A stretch of DNA of 64,000 bases from an uncultured Eubacteriales bacterium (GCA_902777335.1 CACYTF010000008.1:378-64377), one strand, 5' to 3'. Shown: positions 12,270 to 61,794, numbered from the stretch's first letter. Program-made: numbers and translations. Notes: generated from the letters alone by a model not told the origin.

Positions 12270-12330
12270 CCAAAATCGGGGGGACGGTTCTCTGTGTCAA
12301 TGACACAGAGAACCGTCCCTATGATTTTGG
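12270..12330. repeat. REP family A, 61-bp perfect palindrome
   Basis: CCAAAATCGGGGGGACGGTTCTCTGTGTCAATGACACAGAGAACCGTCCCTATGATTTTGG. Confidence 0.9.
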
Positions 12331-17576: not shown

Positions 17577-17811
17577 GTGTTGTTTGCACCTCCAAATAAC
17601 TTCTATGCTGTGCTTGGAACCGGCGATATTGCCCTTACATAGATTGGGCAGCATCAGCACCGCCCTTCGGCGGCGCCGGGGACCCTTGCGGGCCCTCGCC
17701 CGGGTTTGCGCGTCTGGCGTAACGCCCAAAGCCCTGTGTTTATATGAAGGAATCCCGGAAAACGCGCGGGTCAGGCGCGTCAGCCGCTCCGAAATTCCGT
17801 CAGACCAAATG

Positions 17812-17820
17812 ATTATACCA
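17812..17820 (-). promoter_or_regulatory. Candidate extended -10 (TGGTATAAT) promoter upstream of rpsM
   Basis: Minus strand reads ...gataattgTGgTATAATcatttgg about 240 nt upstream of the rpsM ATG. The -35 is weak. Confidence 0.35.
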
Positions 17821-17948
17821 CAATTATCGCTGCGCCGCTAACATCTTTTATGCAACAATTGTTAAATCTTACATCAAGTTCTGTTATTTCTTGGATTTTG
17901 GCGGATCTGCGCAGGAAAAGTATACAAAATGAAGGAAAACCTTCATCT

Positions 17949-18009
17949 CCAAAATCAGGGGGACGGTTCTCTGTGTCAGTGACACAGAGAACCGTCCCTG
18001 TGATTTTGG
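17949..18009. repeat. REP family A, 61-bp perfect palindrome
   Basis: CCAAAATCAGGGGGACGGTTCTCTGTGTCAGTGACACAGAGAACCGTCCCTGTGATTTTGG, ending 1 nt before the DUF218 gene stop codon. Confidence 0.9.
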
Positions 18010-18010
18010 C

Positions 18011-18883
18011 CTACGGCAAATCCACCGCGCCCTCCGGCACGCCCAGCATGGAGGCCAGCTGGCGGATCGCGAAGCAGTCGTCTGCGGCGTATCTGGACGG
18101 AGGTTGGATCGGAAAGCTGTAGTTGGCCACGATGCGGGCGGAGTAGCCCCAGCTCAGATCGCACAGCGTGGACATGGCGTTGTACAGCACCTGGCTCCAG
18201 CGCTGGTGGTAGGCGGAGGTGACGATGGTCATCGTGTCGACGCCCTGGGCCCGCATGATTGCGAAGGTATTCACCGCGTTCTGCAGCGTGGTCATGGCGT
18301 TCTCGTCGATGCATATCCTGTCCGGGGCGATGCCACAAATTTCCGTCAGGTAGGCCTTCATCATGCCCGCCTCGGTGTGGCCCTCGGGGTTGTTGTCGCC
18401 GGTGGCCCCGCCGGAGCAGACCAGTATCGCTTCCGGGTAGGACCGCGCCGCGGCGGCGGCCGCCGCGCAACGGCCCTTCAATTCGTCGGTCATCTCGCCG
18501 TTCTTCAGCTCAAAGCCCAGCACCACGAAGGCGTGGCGCTCGCCGATCGCCGGGTTCGCCGCCTCCAGCGCCGCCGCGCGCTCGCCGCCGTCGTACAGAT
18601 ACATCGGGTAGTCCGGATCCAGGTAGACGGCCTTCCAATGGTCCACGATGGAGCGGGCGACGGTCAGGTCGGTGGCGCTGATCGAGCCGATGGCCTCCAG
18701 CACCCAGTCGAAATAGGCTTCGTCGCCGTCGGACGGCCGCTCGTAGGCCGACAGCAGCGCCGACAGCAGCACGCCGAAGTTGACCCGGTTGTTTTCGTCG
18801 ACGCGGTAGTAATCCTCCGCCGACGCGCCGGCGGCGCACAGCAGCGCCAGCGCAACGAAAAGCGCCGCGAGCCTTCGCATCAT
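18011..18883 (-). CDS. YdcF/ElyC-family (DUF218) secreted protein
   Basis: Start at MMRRLAALFVALALLCAAGASA (signal peptide). HAFVVLGFEL...ILVCSGGATG...HTEAGMMKAYL...IDENAMTTLQNA...IVTSAYHQRWS matches the DUF218 pattern. Confidence 0.8.
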   Translation of the reverse strand: MMRRLAALFVALALLCAAGASAEDYYRVDENNRVNFGVLLSALLSAYERPSDGDEAYFDWVLEAIGSISATDLTVARSIVDHWKAVYLDPDYPMYLYDGGERAAALEAANPAIGERHAFVVLGFELKNGEMTDELKGRCAAAAAAARSYPEAILVCSGGATGDNNPEGHTEAGMMKAYLTEICGIAPDRICIDENAMTTLQNAVNTFAIMRAQGVDTMTIVTSAYHQRWSQVLYNAMSTLCDLSWGYSARIVANYSFPIQPPSRYAADDCFAIRQLASMLGVPEGAVDLP

Positions 18884-19695
18884 GATACCGTCTCCTCTCC
18901 CGACCCGTCCGGCAGAGCATCGTCCCCCCGAAGGGCCCGCCCCGCCTTCGCCATGCGCCGGGCGCGGCAGAAGCTGAGCCCGGTCAGGCGGGCGATCTGT
19001 CGGATGGAAGCGCCGCGCCGGGCCAGCGTCCGCACGCCCTCGCGCTGTTTTTCGTCCTCCAGGTTCAGATAGTCCGCCGGGGCGTCGCAGCCGGTGCACC
19101 GCTTCATCACCGCCACCGCCTTCCGGTCGGACAGCCGCGGCTCGGCGTATTCCAATTCGTCCATGCAGCGGTCGTCCTCGCCGCGCCTGTGGAATTCGAC
19201 GAATTCCTCGCGGCCGATCATGCCCAATACAAATCCTGTGTCCGTCAGCCCGCCCCCGTCGACATAGTCGGCATAGCTGCTGTAGGGATAGTCCGCGGGG
19301 GCTGCGCAGAGGCCGGCCTTGACCGGATTGCGGTGGATGTACCGCAGCGCGGTCAGCAGGTAAGCATCGTCGTGGATGGCTTCGCTCTTGTACCGGTCCT
19401 GGAAGAGGTGCCCCACCCGGTCGTACTTCAGGTTGTACCAGTACACATAGCTCGCGCCGAGCCGCCTGAACGCCGTGGCCAGGGGCTCGCCGCCCTCCCG
19501 GATCAGCAGGTGGACGTGGTTTGGCATCAGGCAGTACGCGAACAGCTCAAAGCCGCACGCCAGCTTGTACCGCTCCAGCGTCTGCAAAAAGCGCGCATAA
19601 TCCTCCTCGTCGCAGAATATCTTCTGCCGGTTGATGCCCCTGAACATGACGTGATAGGTTCCCGATTCGCTCCGCTCTCTGGCACCTCTTGGCAT
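18880..19695 (-). CDS. RAYT-type (IS200-like Y1/HUH) transposase homologue with C-terminal HTH extension
   Basis: MPRGARERSESGTYHVMFRGINRQKIF...CLMPNHVHLLI (HUH)...GHLFQDRYKSEAI...LRYIHRNPVKAGL (Tyr box). C-terminus ...ASIRQIARLTGLS (HTH). Flanked by REP-A palindromes. Stop overlaps the next start (ATGA). Confidence 0.85.
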   Translation of the reverse strand: MPRGARERSESGTYHVMFRGINRQKIFCDEEDYARFLQTLERYKLACGFELFAYCLMPNHVHLLIREGGEPLATAFRRLGASYVYWYNLKYDRVGHLFQDRYKSEAIHDDAYLLTALRYIHRNPVKAGLCAAPADYPYSSYADYVDGGGLTDTGFVLGMIGREEFVEFHRRGEDDRCMDELEYAEPRLSDRKAVAVMKRCTGCDAPADYLNLEDEKQREGVRTLARRGASIRQIARLTGLSFCRARRMAKAGRALRGDDALPDGSGEETVS

Positions 19696-19748
19696 AACAT
19701 CGCCCCCTTAATACTGAGTATACCCGGCGATGGGCGGCGTGTCAATCC

Positions 19749-19809
19749 CCAAAATCAAGGGGACGGTTCTCTGTGTCATTGACACAGAGAACCGTCCCCT
19801 TGATTTTGG
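19749..19809. repeat. REP family A, 61-bp perfect palindrome
   Basis: CCAAAATCAAGGGGACGGTTCTCTGTGTCATTGACACAGAGAACCGTCCCCTTGATTTTGG, between the RAYT start and the MerR stop. Confidence 0.9.
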
Positions 19810-19816
19810 CCGGGGA

Positions 19817-20803
19817 TCATTTCGCCTTCGGCTTCACCGGGATCAGCAGGTCGAGCTGCGCCGTTTGGGGCTCGCCCTTTTGGGTCCGGCGGACGTGGTC
19901 GTGGTAGTTCAGGTGCTCCTCCAGCGCTCCGAACATGTCGTCCGGGTCGCCGCTGCCGTTGTATTCGTATTCGTCGCTCTCGCGCACCCATCTGTCCAGC
20001 CACTCCCACTCCTGGAAGTTGCCCATCTGGATCATGTGCGCGGCGTAGGTGCCGCCCGGAAAGTGCTTCTTCTCCAGCGGCGGCGGCACCTCGACGCCCT
20101 CCGGCAGCGTGATCCAGAACTCATAGCCGTGCCACCCCGACTCATCCGACGGGCTGGGATGGTTGAAGCCGTACAGCCGCAGCCCGGGGTGCTTCTCCCA
20201 CAGCCGCGTCACGCGCACGAAATCCGAGATCATGTCGCCCGCCCGTTCCTCCGGGTCGTCGCCCACCACGTGGGCCGCGGCGACATCGCTTGCGGGCAGA
20301 TACACGATGCGCACATCCTTCATCGCCTGCCAGCCCTGCTGGCCCTGCTCCAGTTTCTCCATGATGCTTCGCCTCTCCTCCTTAATCAGCGTGGAAGCGG
20401 GTGAAAGGGCGTCGGCCAGGGCCATCAGCCGCTCGTCCTGAAGCAGCGCCTCCCCCGCGGGCAGCGCGCGCCGCTGCTTCAGCGCCTCCAGGAACGCCGC
20501 GATCACGTCCCGGACCGCGCGAAGGGCCTTGAACTCCTCGTCCAGCTGGGCCAGGTTCCGCTCCAGCACCCGCACGGCGGCGGCGGGGCCGGGGTCGGAC
20601 AGTATCTCCCCGATCTCCTTCAGCGACAGCCGCAGCTTGCGCAGCGTCAGGATCTGGCGCAGGCGCAGGATGTCCTCCGGGCCGTACACCCGATAGGCAT
20701 AGCCCTCCCTGCGGTCGCTTCGCATCAGGCCCTGCTTCTCGTAGTGGCGCAGCATCCGCGCGGAGACGCCGTACATCCTGGACACCTCGACGACGGTCAG
20801 CAT
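19817..20803 (-). CDS. MerR-family transcriptional regulator with GyrI-like effector-binding domain
   Basis: Start at MLTVVEVSRMYGVSARMLRHYEKQGLMRSDRREGYAYRVYGPEDILRLRQILTLRKLRLSLKEI (MerR HTH). The C-terminal half resembles the GyrI/SbmC-like fold (...FPGGTYAAHM...). The upstream part of the 421-aa track ORF runs through REP copies. Confidence 0.85.
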   Translation of the reverse strand: MLTVVEVSRMYGVSARMLRHYEKQGLMRSDRREGYAYRVYGPEDILRLRQILTLRKLRLSLKEIGEILSDPGPAAAVRVLERNLAQLDEEFKALRAVRDVIAAFLEALKQRRALPAGEALLQDERLMALADALSPASTLIKEERRSIMEKLEQGQQGWQAMKDVRIVYLPASDVAAAHVVGDDPEERAGDMISDFVRVTRLWEKHPGLRLYGFNHPSPSDESGWHGYEFWITLPEGVEVPPPLEKKHFPGGTYAAHMIQMGNFQEWEWLDRWVRESDEYEYNGSGDPDDMFGALEEHLNYHDHVRRTQKGEPQTAQLDLLIPVKPKAK

Positions 20804-20880
20804 GTCCTCCACTCCTACCGCCCCCTTCCTTCCGCTCCAGTATAAACCGCGACACTGTGTCCGTGTCAAGCCCCCTTCCA

Positions 20881-20976
20881 CCAAAATCACAGGGACGGTT
20901 CTCTGTGTCATTGACACAGAGAACCGTCCCTGTGATTTTGGCCGAGTGACACAGAGAACCGTCCCCCTGATTTTGG
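20881..20976. repeat. REP family A: one 61-bp palindrome (20881-20941) plus a half copy (20946-20976)
   Basis: CCAAAATCACAGGGACGGTTCTCTGTGTCATTGACACAGAGAACCGTCCCTGTGATTTTGG ccga GTGACACAGAGAACCGTCCCCCTGATTTTGG. Confidence 0.9.
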
Positions 20977-21032
20977 CCGGACAAAGCGAAGGCGGGGGAA
21001 CTCGCGTTCCCCCGCCGTTCATTGGGGTTGGA

Positions 21033-34299: not shown

Positions 34300-34355
34300 A
34301 TATATTGTGTGATTTGAATGTTATTTTTCAGAGAAGTTCCGCCCCGCCACAAAAT

Positions 34356-34384
34356 CCTGTCAACAGGACCGTCCCGGTGACAGG
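34356..34384. repeat. REP family B, single unit
   Basis: CCTGTCAACAGGACCGTCCCGGTGACAGG (7-bp stem CCTGTCA/TGACAGG), about 60 nt downstream of the Big_2 gene stop. Confidence 0.85.
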
Positions 34385-34447
34385 TTTTGGAATACAATAC
34401 AGGGGCGGCCGATGGCCGCCCCTGGGGGTGATACTATGGGTTGTGGA

Positions 34448-36858: not shown

Positions 36859-36919
36859 CCTGTCACGGGGACGGTCCTGTTGTCAGAAAAACCTGACAAC
36901 AGGACCGTCCCCGTGACAG
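36859..36919. repeat. REP family B, inverted pair of units
   Basis: CCTGTCACGGGGACGGTCCTGTTGTCAG aaaaa CCTGACAACAGGACCGTCCCCGTGACAG, 12 nt downstream of the RAYT-2 stop. Confidence 0.9.
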
Positions 36920-36931
36920 CTTTTTCCCGCC

Positions 36932-37672
36932 TCAGGCATCCTGTATGACCCCGCGGTTGATGCCCGTCAGCCGCTCGATCTGCCTGACCGTCAGGCCGCG
37001 CGCCTTGAGCCATCGCAGGGCCGCGTCGCGTTCCTTCTTATTGAATTCCTGCAGCTGGGTGCCGCTGGTCAGCTTGTAGGTGTCGCAGATCAGTTTGCGC
37101 GCCTGGTCGTCGTGAATCCACTGCTTGTCCCGAATGTCCAGGCAGTTTTCCTCGCGCTCCCGCCGCATCCAGTCCGCGAAGCACTTCGGGCCCCCGATCA
37201 TCTCCAGCACGGGCGCGTTGTCGATGCCCTCCCCCGGCGACAGATACTCGCCGTAGCTGCTCCAGCGGTAATCCTCGGCCTTCGCGACGCCCGCCTTCTC
37301 CGGATTGCGGTGAATGTAGCGGACGACCGTCAGCAGGTACTCGTCGCTGTCCACCGCCTCGCTCATATACCGGTCCTGAAACAGGTGCCCGAACCGATCG
37401 TACTTGCGGTTGTAGTAGATGGCGTAGCTCCCGGCGATCTTCTTCATGATCAGGTCGAGCTGATCGCGCGCATCGTGGATCAGCAGGTGGACGTGGTTGT
37501 CCATCAGGCACCAGGCCACCAGATCAAAGCACAGCTCCTGACGGTACCTCAGCACCGTCGAAAGGAACCGCTCGTCGTCCTGCGCGTCTTCAAACAGGAT
37601 CTGCCTGCCGATGCCGCGCAGTATCACGTGGTAGTATCCGCTCTCGCACTTCTGACGCGCTGTTCTGGGCAT
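36932..37672 (-). CDS. RAYT-type (IS200-like Y1/HUH) transposase homologue with C-terminal HTH (second paralogue)
   Basis: Start at MPRTARQKCESGYYHVILRGIGRQILF...CLMDNHVHLLI (HUH)...GHLFQDRYMSEAV...VRYIHRNPEKAGV (Tyr box)...LTVRQIERLTGIN (HTH). RBS AGGGGG. Flanked on both sides by REP-B. The upstream part of the 307-aa track ORF runs through REP-B. Confidence 0.85.
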   Translation of the reverse strand: MPRTARQKCESGYYHVILRGIGRQILFEDAQDDERFLSTVLRYRQELCFDLVAWCLMDNHVHLLIHDARDQLDLIMKKIAGSYAIYYNRKYDRFGHLFQDRYMSEAVDSDEYLLTVVRYIHRNPEKAGVAKAEDYRWSSYGEYLSPGEGIDNAPVLEMIGGPKCFADWMRREREENCLDIRDKQWIHDDQARKLICDTYKLTSGTQLQEFNKKERDAALRWLKARGLTVRQIERLTGINRGVIQDA

Positions 37673-37720: not shown

Positions 37721-37782
37721 GTTGTCAACAGGACCGTCCCGGTGACAGGAAAACCTGACAACAGGACCGTCCCGGTGACAGG
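37721..37782. repeat. REP family B, two direct units
   Basis: GTTGTCAACAGGACCGTCCCGGTGACAGG aaaa CCTGACAACAGGACCGTCCCGGTGACAGG, 48 nt upstream of the RAYT-2 start. Confidence 0.9.
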
Positions 37783-37853: not shown

Positions 37854-40800
37854 ATGTTTTCCAGATACAGCGTGAAAAAGCCCTACACCGTCATCGTGGG
37901 CGTCATACTGGTGATCGTGCTCGGGGTCATCTCCTTTCAGAAGATGACCACCGATCTGCTGCCCAGCATGGACCTGCCCTACGTGGTGGTGTTCACCAGC
38001 TATGTGGGGGCCACGCCTGAGCAGGTGGAGTCGGAGATCACCCGCCCGATGGAGGCCGCCTTCGCCACGCTGACGGACATGAAGAAGATCACCTCCTCCT
38101 CCCGGGACAATGTGTCCGTGGTGACGATGCAGTTCAACGACGGCGCGAACATGGACACCGCCCTGATCGAGATCTCGTCGCGGCTGGACCAGCTGCGGGG
38201 CGGCTGGGGCGACGAGATCGGCGCGCCGGTGACCATGAAGCTGAACCCGGATATGCTGCCGGTGGCGATACTCTCCGTCACCCGGGACGACATGGACATA
38301 CTCGCCCTGTCGGACTATGTGGAGGACAAGCTGGTCCCCGCCTTTGAATCGCTGAACGGCGTGGCCTCGGCCAGCGCCTCGGGCGTGATCCAGCAGCGCG
38401 TGGACATCACCATCGAGCAGAGCCGCATCGACGTGCTGAACAGCGCCATATTGGAGGACATCGACGCCGAGCTGGCCGAGGTCGAGCGCCAGCTGAACGA
38501 CGCCCAGGCCCAGCTCTCCGACGGCAAGAACGCCCTGGCCCGGGCGAAGCGGCAGGCCCTGAAGCAGATCGACGACGCCCTCGCGGCCATCGACCAGGGC
38601 AGCGGCCAGATCGCCCCGGCCATCGAGCAGCTGACCGCGCAGCGGGACCAGCTGATCGCCCAGCGGGACCAGGCGGAGGCCGCCCTCCAGGCGCTGGAGG
38701 GCCTGATGGGCATGGACGACACCCAGCGCGGCGCGCTCCTGATGATGCAGCAGGGCCTGGAGCTGCTGAAGGACCGGCTGACGGCCCTCGAGGCGCAGCT
38801 GGCCCGGGGCACGGACGCCGGCGACGCCGACGCTGACGCCCTGCGCGAACAGCTGATCGCCCAGCGGGACGCGCTGGCGAACCAGCTGGAGCAGCAGCGC
38901 GCCTACCTGAGCGACCTGGGGCTCATCAGCCCCGACGCGCTGCAGAAGGAGATCGACCGCCTGACCTCTGGCATCAAGGACAATGAGGGCGCGCTGGCCG
39001 ACGCCCGGGCGGAGCTTCAGCAATTGCAGGCCCAGCGCGACGCCGCCCAGGCCGCCATCGACGATCTCACCCGCCGCATCGCCGAGGCCGAAACCACCGC
39101 CGCACCATCAGAGAACGAGGCGCCGGCGGGGACGGAGGTGCCGGCTGTTACCGACGCGCCGGTGGAGACGGAGGCGCCTGCGGATGGGGAGACGACCTCT
39201 TCAGTCTCGCCTGACGGCGAGCCAGCTTCCCCTGAAGGGGAAGCCTCAGGAGAACCCCAAGAGCCTTCCCCCGTTGGGGAAGGTGCCGAGCGTAGCGAGG
39301 CGGAAGAGGTCTCCACTCCCGCTGAGCCTACGGACAAATCCTCTGAGGAGGAGACGACCTCTTCAGTCTCGCCTGACGGCGAGCCAGCTTCCCCTGAAGG
39401 GGAAGCCTCAGGAGAACCCCAAGAGCCTTCCCCTTCAGGGGAAGGTGGCAGCGCGCAAGCGCTGACGGAAGAGGTCTCCACTCCCGCTGAGCCTACGGAC
39501 AAATCCTCTGAGGAGGAGACGACCTCTTCAGTCTCGCCTGGCGGCGAGCCAGCTTCCCCTGAAGGGGAAGCCTCAGGAGACCCCGCTGACACGACCCAAG
39601 AACCCTCCCCAGATGGGAAGGCTGAAGACCCCGCCGACGCCACCCAAAAGCCTTCCCCCGTTGGGGAAGGTGCCGAGCGCAGCGAGGCGGAAGAGGTCTC
39701 CGCTCCCGCTGAAACGACGGCAGATACGACCGCGGATGAGGTCTCCCCTCCCGCCGAGCCAAAACTCGAAGCCCCCGCGGACGATGTCCCCTTGTCCGCC
39801 GAACCCACCGCCTCCCCCGATCCCGCCGACACATCCGAACCTTCCCCCGAACCCACCCTCGAACCCGAGGGCATGGCGCGGCGGCCCTTTGGCATGGCGG
39901 CCATGGCGGAGGAGGACGACGTGGAGGCGATGCGGGCGCAGCTGGACGAGGCGCGAAAGAACCTGGCCAGGCTGGCGGCGGACATCGCCGAGCAGTCGGA
40001 GCTGGTGGACGCGCTGGCCGCCGCCCTGGACGTGGACCGGGACACCCTCGAAAAGCGCCTGGCGGAGCTGGCGGCGCTGGGCGAGGACGAGGACGTGCGG
40101 AGCCGCTCCGAGGAGGCCCAGCGCGTCATCGACATGCTGGCCGAGCGCATCGTGAAGCTGGACGAGGAGCTGCGGCAGATCGACGCCGACAACGCGCCCG
40201 ATGCCCTGCGCCAGGCCATCGCGGTGCTCCGGGAGCAGATCAGCGACATCGAGGCCAGCGACGCCTACCAGGCCATGGCGCTGCTGAAGGACCCCGACGC
40301 CCTGAAGGCCCAGTATACCCAGGTCAAGGACGGCGTGGCGCAGCTGAACGACGGCATCGCCCAGATCGACGCGACGCTGGAGAAGCTGAACAAGGGCGTC
40401 ATTCCCGGCGGTTTCATCGACGGCATCGACGAGGACACCAACCTGGCGGACGCCCGCAGCGCCCTCACCGCCGCCCGCGCCAAGGCCGTCAGCGGCTTTG
40501 CCGACGCCGCCGCCCAGATCAGCGCGGGCGAGGCGGAGCTCAACAAGGCCCGCAAGGAATTCAACGACAAGCGCGAGGAGGCCCTCGAAAACGCCGGGCT
40601 GGACGGCGTGATCACCGTGCAGATGGTCTCCGGCCTGATCGGCGCGCAGAACTTCGCCATGCCCGCGGGCTACGTGTACGACGCAGACAGCGAGCAGGTG
40701 CTGGTGCGCGTGGGCGACAAGTTCGACAGCCTGGACGCGCTGCGGCGGATGAAGCTGTTCCACCTGGGGCTGGATTCCATACAGGACGTGCGCCTGCTGG

Positions 40801-43334
40801 ACGTGGCCAGCGTGGAGCTGGCCGACGACCGGGACGAGGTGTTCACCAAGCTGAACGGCACGGACGGCATACTGCTGTCGCTGGAGAAGCAGTCCACCTA
40901 CTCCACCGCCGACGTGGCCGGCACCATACTGGCCCGCGCCGACGCGCTGATGGCCGAGGACCCGAGCCTGCACATCGTGGACCTGATGAACCAGGGCGAG
41001 TACATCAGCATCATCGTGGATTCGGTGCTGAACAACCTGATCTCCGGCGGCGGCCTGGCGATACTGGTGCTGCTGCTGTTTCTGATGGACCTGCGGCCCA
41101 CGATCACGGTGGCCTTCTCGATTCCCATCAGCGTGGTCATCGCCTTCGTGTGCATGTACTTCACCGGCATCACGCTGAACGTGCTGTCGCTGTCCGGCCT
41201 CAGCCTGGGCATCGGCATGCTGGTGGACAATTCCATCGTGGCCATCGAGAACATCTACCGCCTGCACGACGAGGAGGGCGTGCCGCTGCTGCGCGCCTGC
41301 GTGGAGGGCGTGCGCTCGGTCTCCGGCGCGCTGTTCGCCTCCACGCTGACCACGATCTGCGTGTTCCTGCCCATCGTGTTCGTGCAGGGCATGGCCCGGG
41401 ACCTGTTCAGCGACATGGGCCTGTCCATCGCCTACTCGCTGCTGGCCTCGCTGCTGGTGGCCATGACGGTGGTGCCCGCCATGTGCTCGTTCCTGATGCG
41501 CCGCTCCAAGCCCCGCAGGCACCCGGTGTTCGGCATGCTGCAGCGCTTCTACACCTTCCTGCTGCGCGGCGCGCTGCGGGTGAAGCCGCTGGTGCTGCTG
41601 GCGGCTCTGGGCCTGCTGGCCTTTGCCGCCATGCAGGTGCCGAAGATGGGCATCTCCTTCATGCCGGAGGTCAACTCCCGGCAGATGAGCGCCACGCTGG
41701 CCCTCGACCCGGAGATGCCCGACGCCCAGCAGAAGGACCTGGCCGTGGCCATCATGGACGACATGATGCAGGTGGACGGCGTGGACAGCGTGGGCCTGAT
41801 GGGCGGCAGCGGCGGCCTGCTGGGCGGGCTGGCCGAGGGCGGCGGCATGTCCTACTACATCATGATCGACGAGGGCACCGACCGCCGGAACGCCGACATC
41901 GCCCGGGAGATGGCCGAGATCGGCCAGCGCCGCGGCGCGGACCTGTCCGTCAGCGCCAGCACGATGGACATCTCCATGCTCACCGGCAGCGGCATCTCCG
42001 CCGAGATCACCGGCAGCGACATCGAGACCCTGCAGAAGATCGCCCTGGACGTGGCCGAGCTGGCCCGGCAGACCGAGGGCGTCGTGGACGTGAGCGACGG
42101 CCTGGAGGACGCCGTGCCGGAGCTGCGCATACAGGTGGACAAGGAAAAGGCCATCGACTCAGGCCTGACCACCGCCCAGGTGTTCCAGTTCATCGCCCAG
42201 AAGGTGATGGGCCGGGTGGAGATCACGAAGGTGACGCTGGACGGCAAGGACCTGAGCGTGTATATGCGGGACGGCGCGAACAGCGAACTTCGGCCCGGGG
42301 ACCTGGAGAACCTGGAGATCGAGGTGGACGGCGAGACGGAGAACAAGCGGGTGCGCGTGGGCGACATCGCCGAGGTGCTGGAGACCCAGAGCCTCTCCAC
42401 CATCCACCGCTCCAGCCAGCGGCGGCTGGTGACCGTGTCCTTCGGCATCGCCGAGGGCTACAGCGCCAATTTGGTCAGCGACGCCTTCGCGGCGAAGCTG
42501 AAGGACTACGCCGTGCCCGCCGGCTACAGCGTGGAGCTGGCCGGCGAAAACGAGACCGTCATGAAGATCATGCACGACCTGGTCTGGATGGTGGTGGTGG
42601 CGGTGCTGCTGATCTTCCTGATCATGGTGGCCCAGTTCCAGAGCTTCAAGTCCCCCATCATCGTCATGTTCACGATCCCGCTGGCCTTCACCGGCGGCCT
42701 GCTGGCGCTGATTCTCACCGGCATGGACCTGTCCATCGTCAGCATGCTGGGCTTCCTGGTGCTCTCCGGCGTGGTGGTGAACAACGGCATCGTGTTCATC
42801 GACTGCGTGAACCAGCTGCGCATCGGCGGCATGGAGAAGCGCGAGGCCCTGGTGGAGACCGGCCGCATCCGCCTGCGCCCGATATTGATGACGGCGCTGA
42901 CCACGATACTGGGCGTGTCCACCATGGCGCTGGGCCGCGGCATGGGCGCGGAGATGATGCAGCCCATGGCCGTGGTGTCCATCGGCGGCCTGAGCTACGC
43001 CACGCTGATGACGCTGTTCGTGGTGCCGGTGCTGTACGACCTGCTCAACGGCAAGACCATGAAGGCCCGGGAGATCCAGATGATCAAGGAGGCCGCCGGC
43101 CTGAACGGGAGCGATGTATCGGAGGGCGAGCCCGCCGCGCCGACGCCCGTCGCCCCCGCGATCCCCGCGCCCGCCGCGCCTCAGGCCGAAGCGCCGGAGG
43201 AACCACCCGTTCCCGAGCCAGCCGAACCCCCCGCCCCCGCGCCCGCGCCCGACACCCCCGCCATCACCCCCGACAGCTTCCGCTACACCCCGCCCCCAAA
43301 GGCCATGCGGGTGAAGATGGGGAGAAGGAAGTAG
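37854..43334 (+). CDS. RND/MMPL-superfamily efflux transporter permease, 1826 aa, with a roughly 700-aa coiled-coil/acidic-repeat insertion and a Pro-rich C-terminal tail
   Basis: N-terminus MFSRYSVKKPYTVIVGVILVIVLGVISFQKMTTDLLPSMDLPYVVVFTSYVGATPEQVE and the 12-TM architecture are AcrB/SwrC-like (...GIGMLVDNSIVAIENI..., ...LSGVVVNNGIVFIDCVNQ...). GGGAGG RBS. Confidence 0.85.
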   Translation: MFSRYSVKKPYTVIVGVILVIVLGVISFQKMTTDLLPSMDLPYVVVFTSYVGATPEQVESEITRPMEAAFATLTDMKKITSSSRDNVSVVTMQFNDGANMDTALIEISSRLDQLRGGWGDEIGAPVTMKLNPDMLPVAILSVTRDDMDILALSDYVEDKLVPAFESLNGVASASASGVIQQRVDITIEQSRIDVLNSAILEDIDAELAEVERQLNDAQAQLSDGKNALARAKRQALKQIDDALAAIDQGSGQIAPAIEQLTAQRDQLIAQRDQAEAALQALEGLMGMDDTQRGALLMMQQGLELLKDRLTALEAQLARGTDAGDADADALREQLIAQRDALANQLEQQRAYLSDLGLISPDALQKEIDRLTSGIKDNEGALADARAELQQLQAQRDAAQAAIDDLTRRIAEAETTAAPSENEAPAGTEVPAVTDAPVETEAPADGETTSSVSPDGEPASPEGEASGEPQEPSPVGEGAERSEAEEVSTPAEPTDKSSEEETTSSVSPDGEPASPEGEASGEPQEPSPSGEGGSAQALTEEVSTPAEPTDKSSEEETTSSVSPGGEPASPEGEASGDPADTTQEPSPDGKAEDPADATQKPSPVGEGAERSEAEEVSAPAETTADTTADEVSPPAEPKLEAPADDVPLSAEPTASPDPADTSEPSPEPTLEPEGMARRPFGMAAMAEEDDVEAMRAQLDEARKNLARLAADIAEQSELVDALAAALDVDRDTLEKRLAELAALGEDEDVRSRSEEAQRVIDMLAERIVKLDEELRQIDADNAPDALRQAIAVLREQISDIEASDAYQAMALLKDPDALKAQYTQVKDGVAQLNDGIAQIDATLEKLNKGVIPGGFIDGIDEDTNLADARSALTAARAKAVSGFADAAAQISAGEAELNKARKEFNDKREEALENAGLDGVITVQMVSGLIGAQNFAMPAGYVYDADSEQVLVRVGDKFDSLDALRRMKLFHLGLDSIQDVRLLDVASVELADDRDEVFTKLNGTDGILLSLEKQSTYSTADVAGTILARADALMAEDPSLHIVDLMNQGEYISIIVDSVLNNLISGGGLAILVLLLFLMDLRPTITVAFSIPISVVIAFVCMYFTGITLNVLSLSGLSLGIGMLVDNSIVAIENIYRLHDEEGVPLLRACVEGVRSVSGALFASTLTTICVFLPIVFVQGMARDLFSDMGLSIAYSLLASLLVAMTVVPAMCSFLMRRSKPRRHPVFGMLQRFYTFLLRGALRVKPLVLLAALGLLAFAAMQVPKMGISFMPEVNSRQMSATLALDPEMPDAQQKDLAVAIMDDMMQVDGVDSVGLMGGSGGLLGGLAEGGGMSYYIMIDEGTDRRNADIAREMAEIGQRRGADLSVSASTMDISMLTGSGISAEITGSDIETLQKIALDVAELARQTEGVVDVSDGLEDAVPELRIQVDKEKAIDSGLTTAQVFQFIAQKVMGRVEITKVTLDGKDLSVYMRDGANSELRPGDLENLEIEVDGETENKRVRVGDIAEVLETQSLSTIHRSSQRRLVTVSFGIAEGYSANLVSDAFAAKLKDYAVPAGYSVELAGENETVMKIMHDLVWMVVVAVLLIFLIMVAQFQSFKSPIIVMFTIPLAFTGGLLALILTGMDLSIVSMLGFLVLSGVVVNNGIVFIDCVNQLRIGGMEKREALVETGRIRLRPILMTALTTILGVSTMALGRGMGAEMMQPMAVVSIGGLSYATLMTLFVVPVLYDLLNGKTMKAREIQMIKEAAGLNGSDVSEGEPAAPTPVAPAIPAPAAPQAEAPEEPPVPEPAEPPAPAPAPDTPAITPDSFRYTPPPKAMRVKMGRRK
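39186..39700 (+). repeat. In-frame tandem repeat (about 162-165 bp, 3 copies plus degenerate flanks) inside the RND gene, encoding acidic P/E/S-rich units
   Basis: Unit ETTSSVSPDGEPASPEGEASGEPQEPSPVGEGAERSEAEEVSTPAEPTDKSSEE. GAGACGACCTCTTCAGTCTCGCCT recurs at 39190, 39351 and 39516. Confidence 0.85.
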
Positions 43335-43371: not shown

Positions 43372-43386
43372 AATACGTATGCATTT

Positions 43387-43481
43387 CCTGACACCGGGAC
43401 GGTCCTGTTGTCAGGAAAAGCTGACAACAGGACCGTCCCCGTGACAGGAAAAGTTGTCAGTAGGACCGTCCCCGTGACAGG
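43387..43481. repeat. REP family B, three units (one inverted plus two direct)
   Basis: CCTGACACCGGGACGGTCCTGTTGTCAGG aaaag CTGACAACAGGACCGTCCCCGTGACAGG aaaa GTTGTCAGTAGGACCGTCCCCGTGACAGG. Lies in the convergent spacer between the RND and caspase genes. Confidence 0.9.
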
Positions 43482-43483
43482 AA

Positions 43484-61206: not shown

Positions 61207-61227
61207 TCGTGGAGGAAGAGGCGGATG

Positions 61228-61262
61228 GAAATGAGGAATGAGGAATGAGGAATGAGGAATTG
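61228..61262. repeat. Heptanucleotide array GAGGAAT x about 4
   Basis: GAAATGAGGAATGAGGAATGAGGAATGAGGAATTG. Confidence 0.85.
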
Positions 61263-61305
61263 TGGTACAAATCCCATCCGGGATTTGTTGGATTCAAGGG
61301 AGAAC

Positions 61306-61562
61306 GGATTGCCATGTTGGCCTCTCTCCGTTCGGCCTCCTCGCAATGACAGGGCGGAGGCGGCTGCCCCCCGCTCTGTCATTGCGAGGAGCCCCCGACG
61401 CAGGAGGGGCCGACGTGGCAATCCGGTCCCCTTCCCCGGCGCTCAAAGTGAGTCAGTAGGAACCTGTCCCCGGTGACTCACACAATGACACGCAAGCGGC
61501 AGCCACCCCCGCTCTGTCATTGCGAGGCGGCTCCGACGCAGGAGGGGCCGACGTGGCAATCC
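61306..61562. repeat. Three copies (one inverted) of a palindromic ATTGC...GCAAT element (GTCATTGCGAGG...GACGTGGCAATCC)
   Basis: 61306-61350 GGATTGCCATGTTGGCC...CCTCGCAATGAC. 61378-61423 and 61507-61562 GTCATTGCGAGG(A/C)G(C)CCCCGACGCAGGAGGGGCCGACGTGGCAATCC. A half copy GGATTGCCACGT lies at about 45628. Confidence 0.8.
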
Positions 61563-61661
61563 GGTCCCCGTTGGCGCATCAAAGTGAGATAAGGAACCGT
61601 CCCTCATCTCACATTCACCCCTCACTCGACTGAGATAAGGGACGGTTCCTTGTCTCACTTT
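61445..61661. repeat. REP-like variant (family E): AAAGTGAGATAAGGAACCGTCCC / GGGACGGTTCCTTGTCTCACTTT inverted pair plus a hybrid half-site
   Basis: Arms at 61581-61603 and 61639-61661 (1 mismatch). Related half-site AAAGTGAGTCAGTAGGAACCTGTCCCCGGTGAC at 61445-61477. Shares the GGGACGGT core with families A and B. Confidence 0.75.
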
Positions 61662-61691
61662 CAGCAATCCGGTCCCCGGCATCCTTCTGTT

Positions 61692-61777
61692 CCTCACTCC
61701 TCACTCCTCACTCGAACCGGCGGCGCCGCCCCTACTGACTGGACAACTCCACTCTCCACTCTTCACTCTCCACTCTC
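61692..61777. repeat. Heptanucleotide arrays CCTCACT x3 and CTCCACT x4 separated by the GC palindrome GGCGGCGCCGCC-CCTACT
   Basis: CCTCACTCCTCACTCCTCACTC gaacc GGCGGCGCCGCCCCTACTGACTGGACAA CTCCACTCTCCACTCTTCACTCTCCACTCTC. Confidence 0.85.
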
Positions 61778-61794
61778 AAAAAGGAGTCCGCGTT

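Follow-up and report, generated by a model that had tools for sequence, protein, structure and literature searches.

We analyzed a 64,000-nucleotide stretch of DNA from an uncultured rumen Eubacteriales bacterium (GCA_902777335.1, CACYTF010000008.1:378-64377; hereafter the window), in which a gene for a Y1 tyrosine transposase homolog, RAYT1, lies between 61-bp palindromes (family A) within positions 17,949 to 20,976. Our reading, to which we give a probability of roughly 0.8, is that RAYT1 and these palindromes constitute a system of the repetitive extragenic palindrome (REP)/REP-associated tyrosine transposase (RAYT) type, belonging to the TIRYT ('TIRtron') branch. Judged by its sequence features, RAYT1 best fits the longer branch of the family that carries a helix-turn-helix (HTH), i.e., TIRYT or subclass 2.1-like, and not the GTAG-REP RAYTs of Gammaproteobacteria.

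RAYT1 is an intact open reading frame (ORF) of 271 aa, compared with 165 aa for the E. coli RAYT. It matches the Pfam profile Y1_Tnp with 52 bits and the NCBIfam equivalog model REP_Tyr_transpos ('REP-associated tyrosine transposase') with 83.5 bits against a cutoff of 80, which bears out the assignment of this coding sequence to RAYT-type Y1 proteins in a preliminary description made from the DNA alone. Among solved structures, its only sequence match is E. coli TnpA_REP (4ER8), and the two proteins are in register over both the HUH motif (NHVHLL versus EHMHCI) and the Tyr box (RYIHRNPVKAG versus DYIYINPVKHG), so that the HUH and Tyr residues named in that description align with the catalytic positions of a solved RAYT. 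An AlphaFold (AF2) model built from 20 homologs, with a mean predicted local distance difference test score of 82 and confident helices at residues 190-251, returns 4ER8 as its top fold match (E 7e-9; template-modelling score 0.77 on the target), followed at ranks 2-30 by the TnpA structures of ISDra2, IS608, and IS200.

An alignment of homologs that are 42-89% identical (A1) shows that His60, His62, Tyr119, and a GHLFQDR motif are invariant, as is the serine motif YxYSS (Tyr136, Ser139, and Ser140) downstream of the catalytic tyrosine. The C-terminal helical region of the family ends in a conserved G-SIRQ-RLTG sequence and yields matches to HTH_28, HTH_23, HTH_7, and HTH_38 that are weak and sub-threshold, in up to 8 of 20 members. 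RAYT1 is under purifying selection: between the window and the sheep-rumen metagenome-assembled genome (MAG) RGIG6928, its ratio of nonsynonymous to synonymous substitution (dN/dS) is 0.27 (dS 0.19), compared with 0.32 for DUF218, 0.23 for MerR, and 0.14 for map.

The 19-mer core of the family A palindromes, GGGACGGTTCTCTGTGTCA, occurs exactly nine times in the window, compared with 0.01 occurrences expected from shuffled sequence. Counting both strands, these lie in pairs at 12281/12301, 17960/17980, 19760/19780, and 20892/20912, with a single copy at 20947. Each element is a 30+1+30 palindrome of 61 bp bounded by CCAAAATCA and TGATTTTGG. The preliminary description had placed perfect palindromes at four sites and a half copy at 20946-20976. 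All of these are present, and the two elements at 19749-19809 and 20881-20941 are indeed perfect; complementarity is 93% in the element at 17949-18009 and 91% in that at 12270-12330, with the mismatches at or beside a variable dinucleotide that adjoins CCAAAATCA. Folded as single-stranded DNA (ssDNA), the elements reach -28 to -36 kcal/mol (z = -11 to -15). Searching the entire window against Rfam with gathering thresholds gave no matches, and the hairpins are therefore not a known RNA family.

Among 34 doublets the variable dinucleotide is identical in both arms in 28 (CA in 15, GG in 7, AG in 5, and CG in 1), where independent arms would match in an estimated ~36% of doublets. Palindromic symmetry does not continue past the doublet ends, as the extension lengths (0 nt in 21 doublets, 1 in 6, 2 in 4, 3 in 2, and 4 in 1) are those of chance; the family A element therefore ends sharply at CCAAAA/TTTTGG. 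Taken together, the matched dinucleotide and the sharp ends indicate that the doublet behaves as one unit with sub-lineages, as a REPIN does. Snap-back copying was considered and rejected, given that flank symmetry is no more than chance.

The association between gene and repeat extends well beyond the window. At locus L007 of RGIG6928, a RAYT1 ortholog (94% identical in DNA and 89% in protein) is found with the same palindrome spacing, and this MAG also has a 47% identical paralog (L068) flanked by another type of inverted repeat. A 44% identical homolog in a Bacillota MAG (L003) is flanked by inverted copies of the family A 19-mer itself. We then used the protein alignment in a metagenome scan that yielded 80 homolog loci, 70 of them evaluable upstream and 76 downstream. 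Of the 70 loci, 59 have the motif GGGAC[GA]G in the 150 nt before the ATG, 33 of these at -62 to -65, and of the 76, 59 have the inverted motif in the 110 nt past the stop codon, most often at +9 to +12; by our estimate, chance would supply about 1 locus in 70. In the large majority of loci, the coding strand reads GGGACGG in the upstream copy and CCGTCCC in the downstream copy, and a minority of relatives (L068, L141, and L162) have GGGGACAG. In several homologs of A1 (P0004, P0022, P0055, P0104, and P0002) the C-terminus reads ...REPSP... or ...SGGRFSV, which is the downstream hairpin in translation (codons AGA GAA CCG TCC CC, or GGG GGA CGG TTC TCT GTG), so these called ORFs extend into the right-end repeat.

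The same arrangement is found in a cultured organism. Acetoanaerobium noterae (34% G+C) has one homolog in its replicon, 34% identical to RAYT1, with GGGACGGTTC hairpins upstream and one overlapping the 3' end of the gene. Fifteen copies of the motif lie within 40 kb, and a search with the 33-nt hairpin located it at at least 32 places in the replicon. The hairpin family there has the form AATCA-NNA-GGGACGGTTCT-TTTTGATT. The record in question (NZ_CP154629.1, 2.63 Mb) is labelled 'plasmid' and annotated with only 4 features; presumably it represents the chromosome.

A second homolog within the window, RAYT2, is accompanied by repeats of its own. It was found by tblastn of the window, shares with RAYT1 43% identity and the arrangement of HUH, Tyr, and HTH, and is flanked by family B, which has the form CTGTCA-CGGGGACGGTCCTGT-TGTCAG and whose upstream proximal unit runs into a TTGACA-17-TATACT promoter like that of RAYT1. 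The sequence common to families A, B, and a third family, C, is (G/A)ACCGTCCC; no cognate RAYT for family C was found within the 64-kb window. The claims that RAYT1 is bracketed by its own repeat and that the repeat tracks with the gene therefore both stand, on the strength of RAYT2 and family B, the RGIG6928 and Bacillota loci, the ~80% of metagenomic homologs that have inverted hairpins of the same loop on their flanks, and A. noterae.

Comparison of these loci clarifies how the repeat is built. The usual element in most genomes is a small hairpin with a variable stem of ~7-9 bp and an invariant loop, GGGGACGGTTC, exemplified by GGAGACAG-GGGACGGTTCT-CTGTCTCC; the stem is specific to the family. 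To assess the stem, we aligned 83 distinct flanking hairpins with the loop as anchor and compared them with 500 shuffles and with controls in which the partner arm was slid by 1-3 columns. The 7-bp stem is paired in 79% of cases, compared with 55% in shuffles, and its covariation score is 0.64, compared with 0.26 when shuffled (0 of 500 shuffles reach the observed value) and 0.13-0.24 in the slid controls. Double changes among AT, CG, and GC occur at every stem pair. The excess of G-T over A-C pairs, examined as a possible sign of which strand folds, lies mostly at the two loop-closing positions.

The exact family A 19-mer is also found in other Clostridia MAGs (Faecousia, Acutalibacteraceae, Lachnospiraceae, and Oscillospiraceae), where it forms a single hairpin, TGACACAG-AGAACCGTCCC-CTGTGTCA; the 61-bp doublet with CCAAAATCA ends was observed only in RGIG6928 and the window. 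From this distribution, the 61-bp palindrome is a lineage-specific doublet of a far more widespread small hairpin. An Acutalibacteraceae MAG (JAZNTA010000075.1; L004 and L038) has 5 longer composite units within a few kb, each consisting of GGGACGGTTCTGCGTGCTATCT..TTATTCAAGGTTT followed by the 19-mer hairpin, which suggests a clustered array like a bacterial interspersed mosaic element.

In the metagenomic loci, 24 of 59 upstream hairpins run into TTGACA, compared with 4 of 59 downstream hairpins. A hairpin fused to a -35 box in many homologs, together with a conserved C-terminal HTH, would also be expected of a Y1 protein recruited as a DNA-binding regulator, with its catalysis lost and its repeats left as decaying relics, and Bertels and Rainey do see Group 1 RAYTs as co-opted single-copy genes. 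We regard this as very improbable, because the HUH, Tyr, and GHLFQDR residues remain invariant across 42-89% identity and because the doublets are near-identical and the arms covary, unlike relics.

The 19-mer is present in 72 genome stretches, 29 of which belong to RGIG6928, the MAG that also has the orthologous RAYT locus; at least 30 family A doublets lie in this fragmented MAG and 4.5 in the 64-kb window. Genes were called with a codon-usage gene caller trained on the window, with starts picked by score and calls checked against Pfam-annotated genes, over the window and 29 RGIG6928 loci (248 kb, 84% coding). None of 58 element clusters falls inside a called gene: 27 lie in tandem, 12 in convergent, and 6 in divergent spacers, and 13 are at contig edges. 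The dispersal and intergenic placement proposed for the repeat are thus both found. In metagenomic loci, the motif density away from the RAYT gene is 0.21 per kb, compared with ~0.03 by chance.

Single exact matches to the 19-mer also occur in Caldatribacteriota, Bacteroidota, Eggerthellaceae, Solirubrobacterales, and Atribacterota MAGs (L011, L023, L026, L050, and L058), some of them in a hairpin context. These could reflect chance, bin contamination, or horizontal transfer; about 4 chance matches to the 19-mer are expected in 596 Gb, by our estimate.

The position of these clusters relative to genes bears on the possibility that the palindromes are primarily host elements, such as bidirectional terminators, 3' mRNA stabilizers, or protein-binding sites, with the proximity of a Y1 gene being incidental or regulatory. 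Both strands of the doublets scan as terminator-like, with a G+C-rich stem of at least 20 bp followed by TGATTTTGG; of 45 evaluable clusters, approximately 22 have a stop codon no more than 16 nt away, and 39 occupy spacers between tandem or convergent genes. Orthologous copies are also better conserved than adjoining genes, as the palindrome upstream of RAYT1 is 98% identical to that of the RGIG6928 ortholog and the flanking genes are 92-95% identical. A terminator role, however, does not predict that the same loop should occur at fixed distances on both sides of ~80% of diverse RAYT homologs, or that different paralogs should have different families. Six of the 45 clusters, that at 12270 included, lie between divergent gene starts, and rpmJ and the neighbors of the RAYT1 block keep ordinary terminators beside the palindromes. 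We therefore consider a primarily host function improbable, less so than the recruited regulator, as the explanation of the association.

Turnover of the repeat can be followed in three aligned stretches of the window and RGIG6928 that are 94-98% identical. The half unit at 20946-20976 is in the window only, being absent at locus L007; a 1.5-unit array past rplQ is in the MAG only, at a synteny break; and the ortholog of doublet 12270 (MAG locus L032) has a different variable dinucleotide.

The gene order at the RAYT1 locus, all on the minus strand, is rpmJ, a terminator, 1.5 palindromes, MerR, a palindrome, the promoter, RAYT1-DUF218, and a palindrome, after which follow the rpsM leader and rpsM-rpsK-rpsD-rpoA-rplQ. 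Because the genes that adjoin RAYT1 are DUF218 and a MerR/Cass2 regulator, there is no TnpB partner, as had been noted. An exact look-up of the RAYT1 protein returned only contigs of 1.6-1.8 kb that end at the palindromes and so add no further context. In most homologs the inverted hairpin lies ~10 nt past the RAYT stop codon with no DUF218-type gene between them, and DUF218 here thus appears to be a passenger gene between RAYT1 and the downstream repeat. Its N-terminus is signal-peptide- or lipoprotein-like (MMRRLAALFVALALLCAAG...), and the gene has the look of a captured passenger.

We compared ten loci that encode an identical L36 protein at the rpmJ-rpsM junction (L075-L084). In 8 of the 10, rpsM directly follows rpmJ with a gap of 65-150 nt. 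Locus L076 has window-like gene sizes and the order rpmJ-MerR-rpsM, with RAYT, DUF218, and the family A palindrome all absent at the junction, and L082 has a BrnT toxin pair there. Since L076 has MerR without the RAYT1-DUF218 block, MerR predates the event. By this comparison the block at 17949-19809 (palindrome, DUF218, RAYT1, palindrome) is an insertion into a lineage-variable spacer. The junction (window 20977-21032 and 17600-17948) is a variable spot in the lineage, and in these genomes rpsM appears to have a conserved leader and a promoter of its own. Integron-like cassettes, suggested by the Cass2 domain and the post-gene palindromes, were considered and rejected: there is neither an integrase nor attC-like features, and MerR occupies the same place without palindromes in L076.

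An insertion of this form is also what would be expected if the block were an autonomous, self-moving IS200-like element with DUF218 as cargo, the dispersed palindromes being its solo ends or derivatives similar to miniature inverted-repeat or palindrome-associated transposable elements (MITE/PATE-like). The preliminary description had stated that there are no insertion sequence (IS) ends, which is misleading, as the flanking palindromes hold the positions of left- and right-end hairpins. The compact, promoter-containing layout is conserved as it would be in an IS; most contigs with homologs are very short, as would be expected of assemblies that end at repeats. Quentin et al. 2018 (PMC6006769) further report a patchy spread of subclass 2.1.2 that resembles horizontal gene transfer. 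Against self-movement, no gene copies more than 47% identical to RAYT1 were seen in the window or the MAG loci besides the ortholog, the paralogs there being only 43-47% identical, and A. noterae has one homolog for at least 32 hairpins. Unlike the ends of IS200/IS605, which share one strand, the hairpins on either side of the gene are inverted relative to each other. Few plasmids or phages carry the gene, with homologs in 19 of 72,556 plasmid records (full-length only on megabase replicons) and in 1 phage record, and its ortholog occupies the same locus in both genomes under purifying selection. An autonomous element is accordingly unlikely in our view, although it is the strongest of the alternatives to a REP/RAYT-type system.

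Table 1 Positions of the two RAYT genes, their neighbors, and the repeats of families A, B, and C in the window
Feature	Position	Strand	Remarks
RAYT1, 271-aa Y1/HUH tyrosine transposase homolog	18880..19695	-	H60/H62; Tyr119 in YIHRNP; YSS serine motif; C-terminal HTH ~214-251
RAYT1 sigma-70-type promoter, TTGACA-17-TATACT	19717..19745	-	11/12 consensus match; abuts upstream palindrome
Family A doublet, perfect	19749..19809	.	Upstream (left-end side) of RAYT1
Family A doublet, 93% complementary	17949..18009	.	2 nt past DUF218 stop; downstream boundary of RAYT1-DUF218 block
Family A doublet (20881-20941, perfect) and extra half unit (20946-20976)	20881..20976	.	Between MerR and rpmJ
Family A doublet	12270..12330	.	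Between divergent parA-like and GH5 genes
DUF218 gene, signal-peptide-like N-terminus	18011..18883	-	Pfam DUF218 70 bits; start overlaps RAYT1 stop (ATGA), translationally coupled
MerR regulator with Cass2/GyrI-like domain	19817-20803	-	Opposite side of RAYT1 from DUF218
RAYT2	36932..37672	-	43% identical to RAYT1; tblastn, ORF, and A1
Family B inverted doublet (CTGTCACGGGGACGGTCCTGTTGTCAG)	36860..36919	.	13 nt past RAYT2 stop
Two direct family B units	37722..37782	.	Upstream of RAYT2; proximal unit runs into promoter
Single family B hairpin	34350..34390	.	Between rpsJ and large Big_2-like surface protein gene
Three-unit family B cluster	43384..43483	.	Between convergent genes
Family C inverted pair (TGAGACAAGGAACCGTCCCTTATCTCA)	61581..61661	.	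Core common to A, B, and C

Family C sits in a 630-nt repeat-rich spacer between an ispH-rpsA fusion gene and a hydrolase gene (61226-61780). The same spacer holds a second hairpin with an GGGGACAGGTTCC loop (~61449-61482), an imperfect palindrome of ~135 nt (61295-61431) with a partial second copy at 61506-61569, three copies of GCAATCCGGTCCCC, and heptamer runs of GGAATGA (four copies, 61226-61257) and CTCACTC/CTCCACT (61690-61775). Elsewhere in the window, an 1826-aa RND/AcrB-like transporter gene (37854-43334) has a long acidic insertion rich in Pro, Ser, and Glu, in which the peptide block TTSSVSPDGEPASPEGEASGEPQEPSP... occurs three times, encoded by long imperfect DNA repeats, especially at 39190-39580.

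To place this system among known ones, we compared it with four described groups. TIRYT, or TIRtron (Di Nocera et al. 2013, PMC3733652), was equated with TnpA_REP subclass 2.1 by Quentin et al. 2018 (PMC6006769), who list an extra C-terminal HTH and a serine motif as features of that subclass. RAYT1 shares with TIRYT a length greater than that of classical RAYTs, a C-terminal HTH (HTH_23/HTH_28-like), a serine motif after the Tyr, and inverted repeats with a GGGG-rich motif (published as GGGGWSAS) that flank the gene at fixed distances; in some genomes, the flanking repeat is likewise a moderately abundant family in dimers or clusters. The motif differs, being GGGGACGG(TTC) here, which agrees with GGGG[AT][CG]A[CG] at 7 of 8 positions, with GGGGACAG in some relatives. 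A second difference lies in structure. The published terminal inverted repeats (TIRs) are described 'rather than typical secondary structures', with no REP-like structures near subclass 2.1 genes (PMC3733652, PMC6006769), whereas those of the present system form clear stem-loops, conserved in the loop and covarying in the stem. The host here belongs to the Clostridia, and REP or TIR families in Firmicutes or Clostridia are reported in neither PMC3733652 nor PMC6006769. In the literature that we searched, RAYTs and Clostridia occur together only in the work of Bertels et al., who found Group 1 RAYTs in Clostridia with weakly enriched flanking 16-mers and later treated them as co-opted and non-REPIN; the HTH-bearing branch is probably their Group 1.

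The resemblance to the REP/REPIN-RAYT systems of Gammaproteobacteria (E. coli TnpA_REP/YafM, 4ER8, and Pseudomonas REPINs) covers the fold, the HUH and Y---NP motifs, a gene of apparently low copy number set between inverted copies of its cognate repeat, and extragenic dispersal in which inverted doublets are frequent and each paralog has one family. Here, in contrast, it is the loop that is conserved in sequence, RAYT1 exceeds the classical proteins by ~100 aa and has an HTH, the -35 box of the gene is joined to the upstream repeat, and the doublet is an almost gap-free 61-bp palindrome. IS200/IS605 TnpA proteins (IS608, ISDra2) share the Y1/HUH fold, and their subterminal hairpins, recognized as ssDNA, are the mechanistic paradigm; our system differs from theirs in its inverted rather than same-strand ends, its lack of near-identical gene copies and of TnpB, and its Tyr motif, which is of class 2 (Y---NP). 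CGTC-tagged REPs (Di Nocera et al. 2013, PMC3733652) are also small dispersed CGTC hairpins (here CCGTCCC) found mostly as head-to-head dimers, but these place an unpaired 5' CGTC tag beside a stem of 8-9 bp that closes a 4-5 nt loop, and they have no associated transposase. In the present system the CGTC is part of the loop itself, which measures ~9-13 nt, and the repeats are accompanied by a Y1 gene of their own.

Several observations weigh against a REP/RAYT-type system. GTAG, the defining tag of classical REPs, is found at neither end of the units, and a single family A unit folds poorly as a hairpin, a good fold being reached by the doublet only. The strong bias toward 3' ends and the T-runs would be equally expected of a host terminator. 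Presence/absence differences between the window and RGIG6928 are few, and one of them is a synteny break rather than a clean insertion; the family A copy number and the single-copy status of RAYT1 rest on this fragmented MAG and on extrapolation. The analysis demonstrates the family and fold of the protein, its catalytic residues, the flanking layout and the conservation of this layout, the covariation of the hairpins, and the dispersal and intergenic bias of the repeat; binding, cleavage, and mobilization, as well as the roles of the HTH and of the promoter overlap, are steps that we infer.

With these points in mind, a REP/RAYT-type system would operate as follows. RAYT1 would be a chromosomal, HTH-bearing Y1/HUH ssDNA endonuclease expressed from its own promoter, with its cognate repeat in the form of a 61-bp head-to-head doublet, analogous to a REPIN, that has reached dozens of intergenic positions. 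If the solved complexes of E. coli RAYT-REP, IS608, and ISDra2 are a guide, RAYT1 may recognize the hairpin loop and stem upon their extrusion in ssDNA, for example at a replication fork, and then cleave and rejoin the DNA through Tyr119 with a metal bound by the HUH motif. Doublets would thereby be copied or maintained in trans, those of family A by RAYT1 and those of family B by RAYT2. The loop would be the obvious specificity element, with the stem or flanks separating families A, B, and C. Once inserted, the stable hairpins and their TTTT tracts probably double as bidirectional terminators or 3' mRNA stabilizers, and the HTH may have a regulatory role at the hairpin/-35 junction. We lean, by a small margin, toward the more general proposal that the HTH-bearing RAYT branch of Clostridia runs a REPIN-type system, with recognition of the GGGGACGGTTC loop, a fusion of the left hairpin to the -35 box that allows autoregulation, and lineage-specific doublets, in rumen and gut Clostridia from 34% to 63% G+C.

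The biology of REP/REPIN-RAYT systems has been worked out almost entirely in Proteobacteria. The system described here is a clean and apparently undescribed Clostridial example of REP/RAYT rather than a new principle, and it suggests that the HTH-bearing RAYT branch has REP-like partners, which would correct the published picture of a subclass without REP-like structures. The combination of a conserved loop, family-specific stems, and paralog-specific families makes this a natural case in which to test hairpin choice by Y1 enzymes, and A. noterae, with one homolog and at least 32 hairpins, provides a tractable cultured host. For genome analysis, gut and rumen assemblies break at such loci because of the repeats, and these intergenic hairpins can serve as an annotation marker for elements that may act as terminators.

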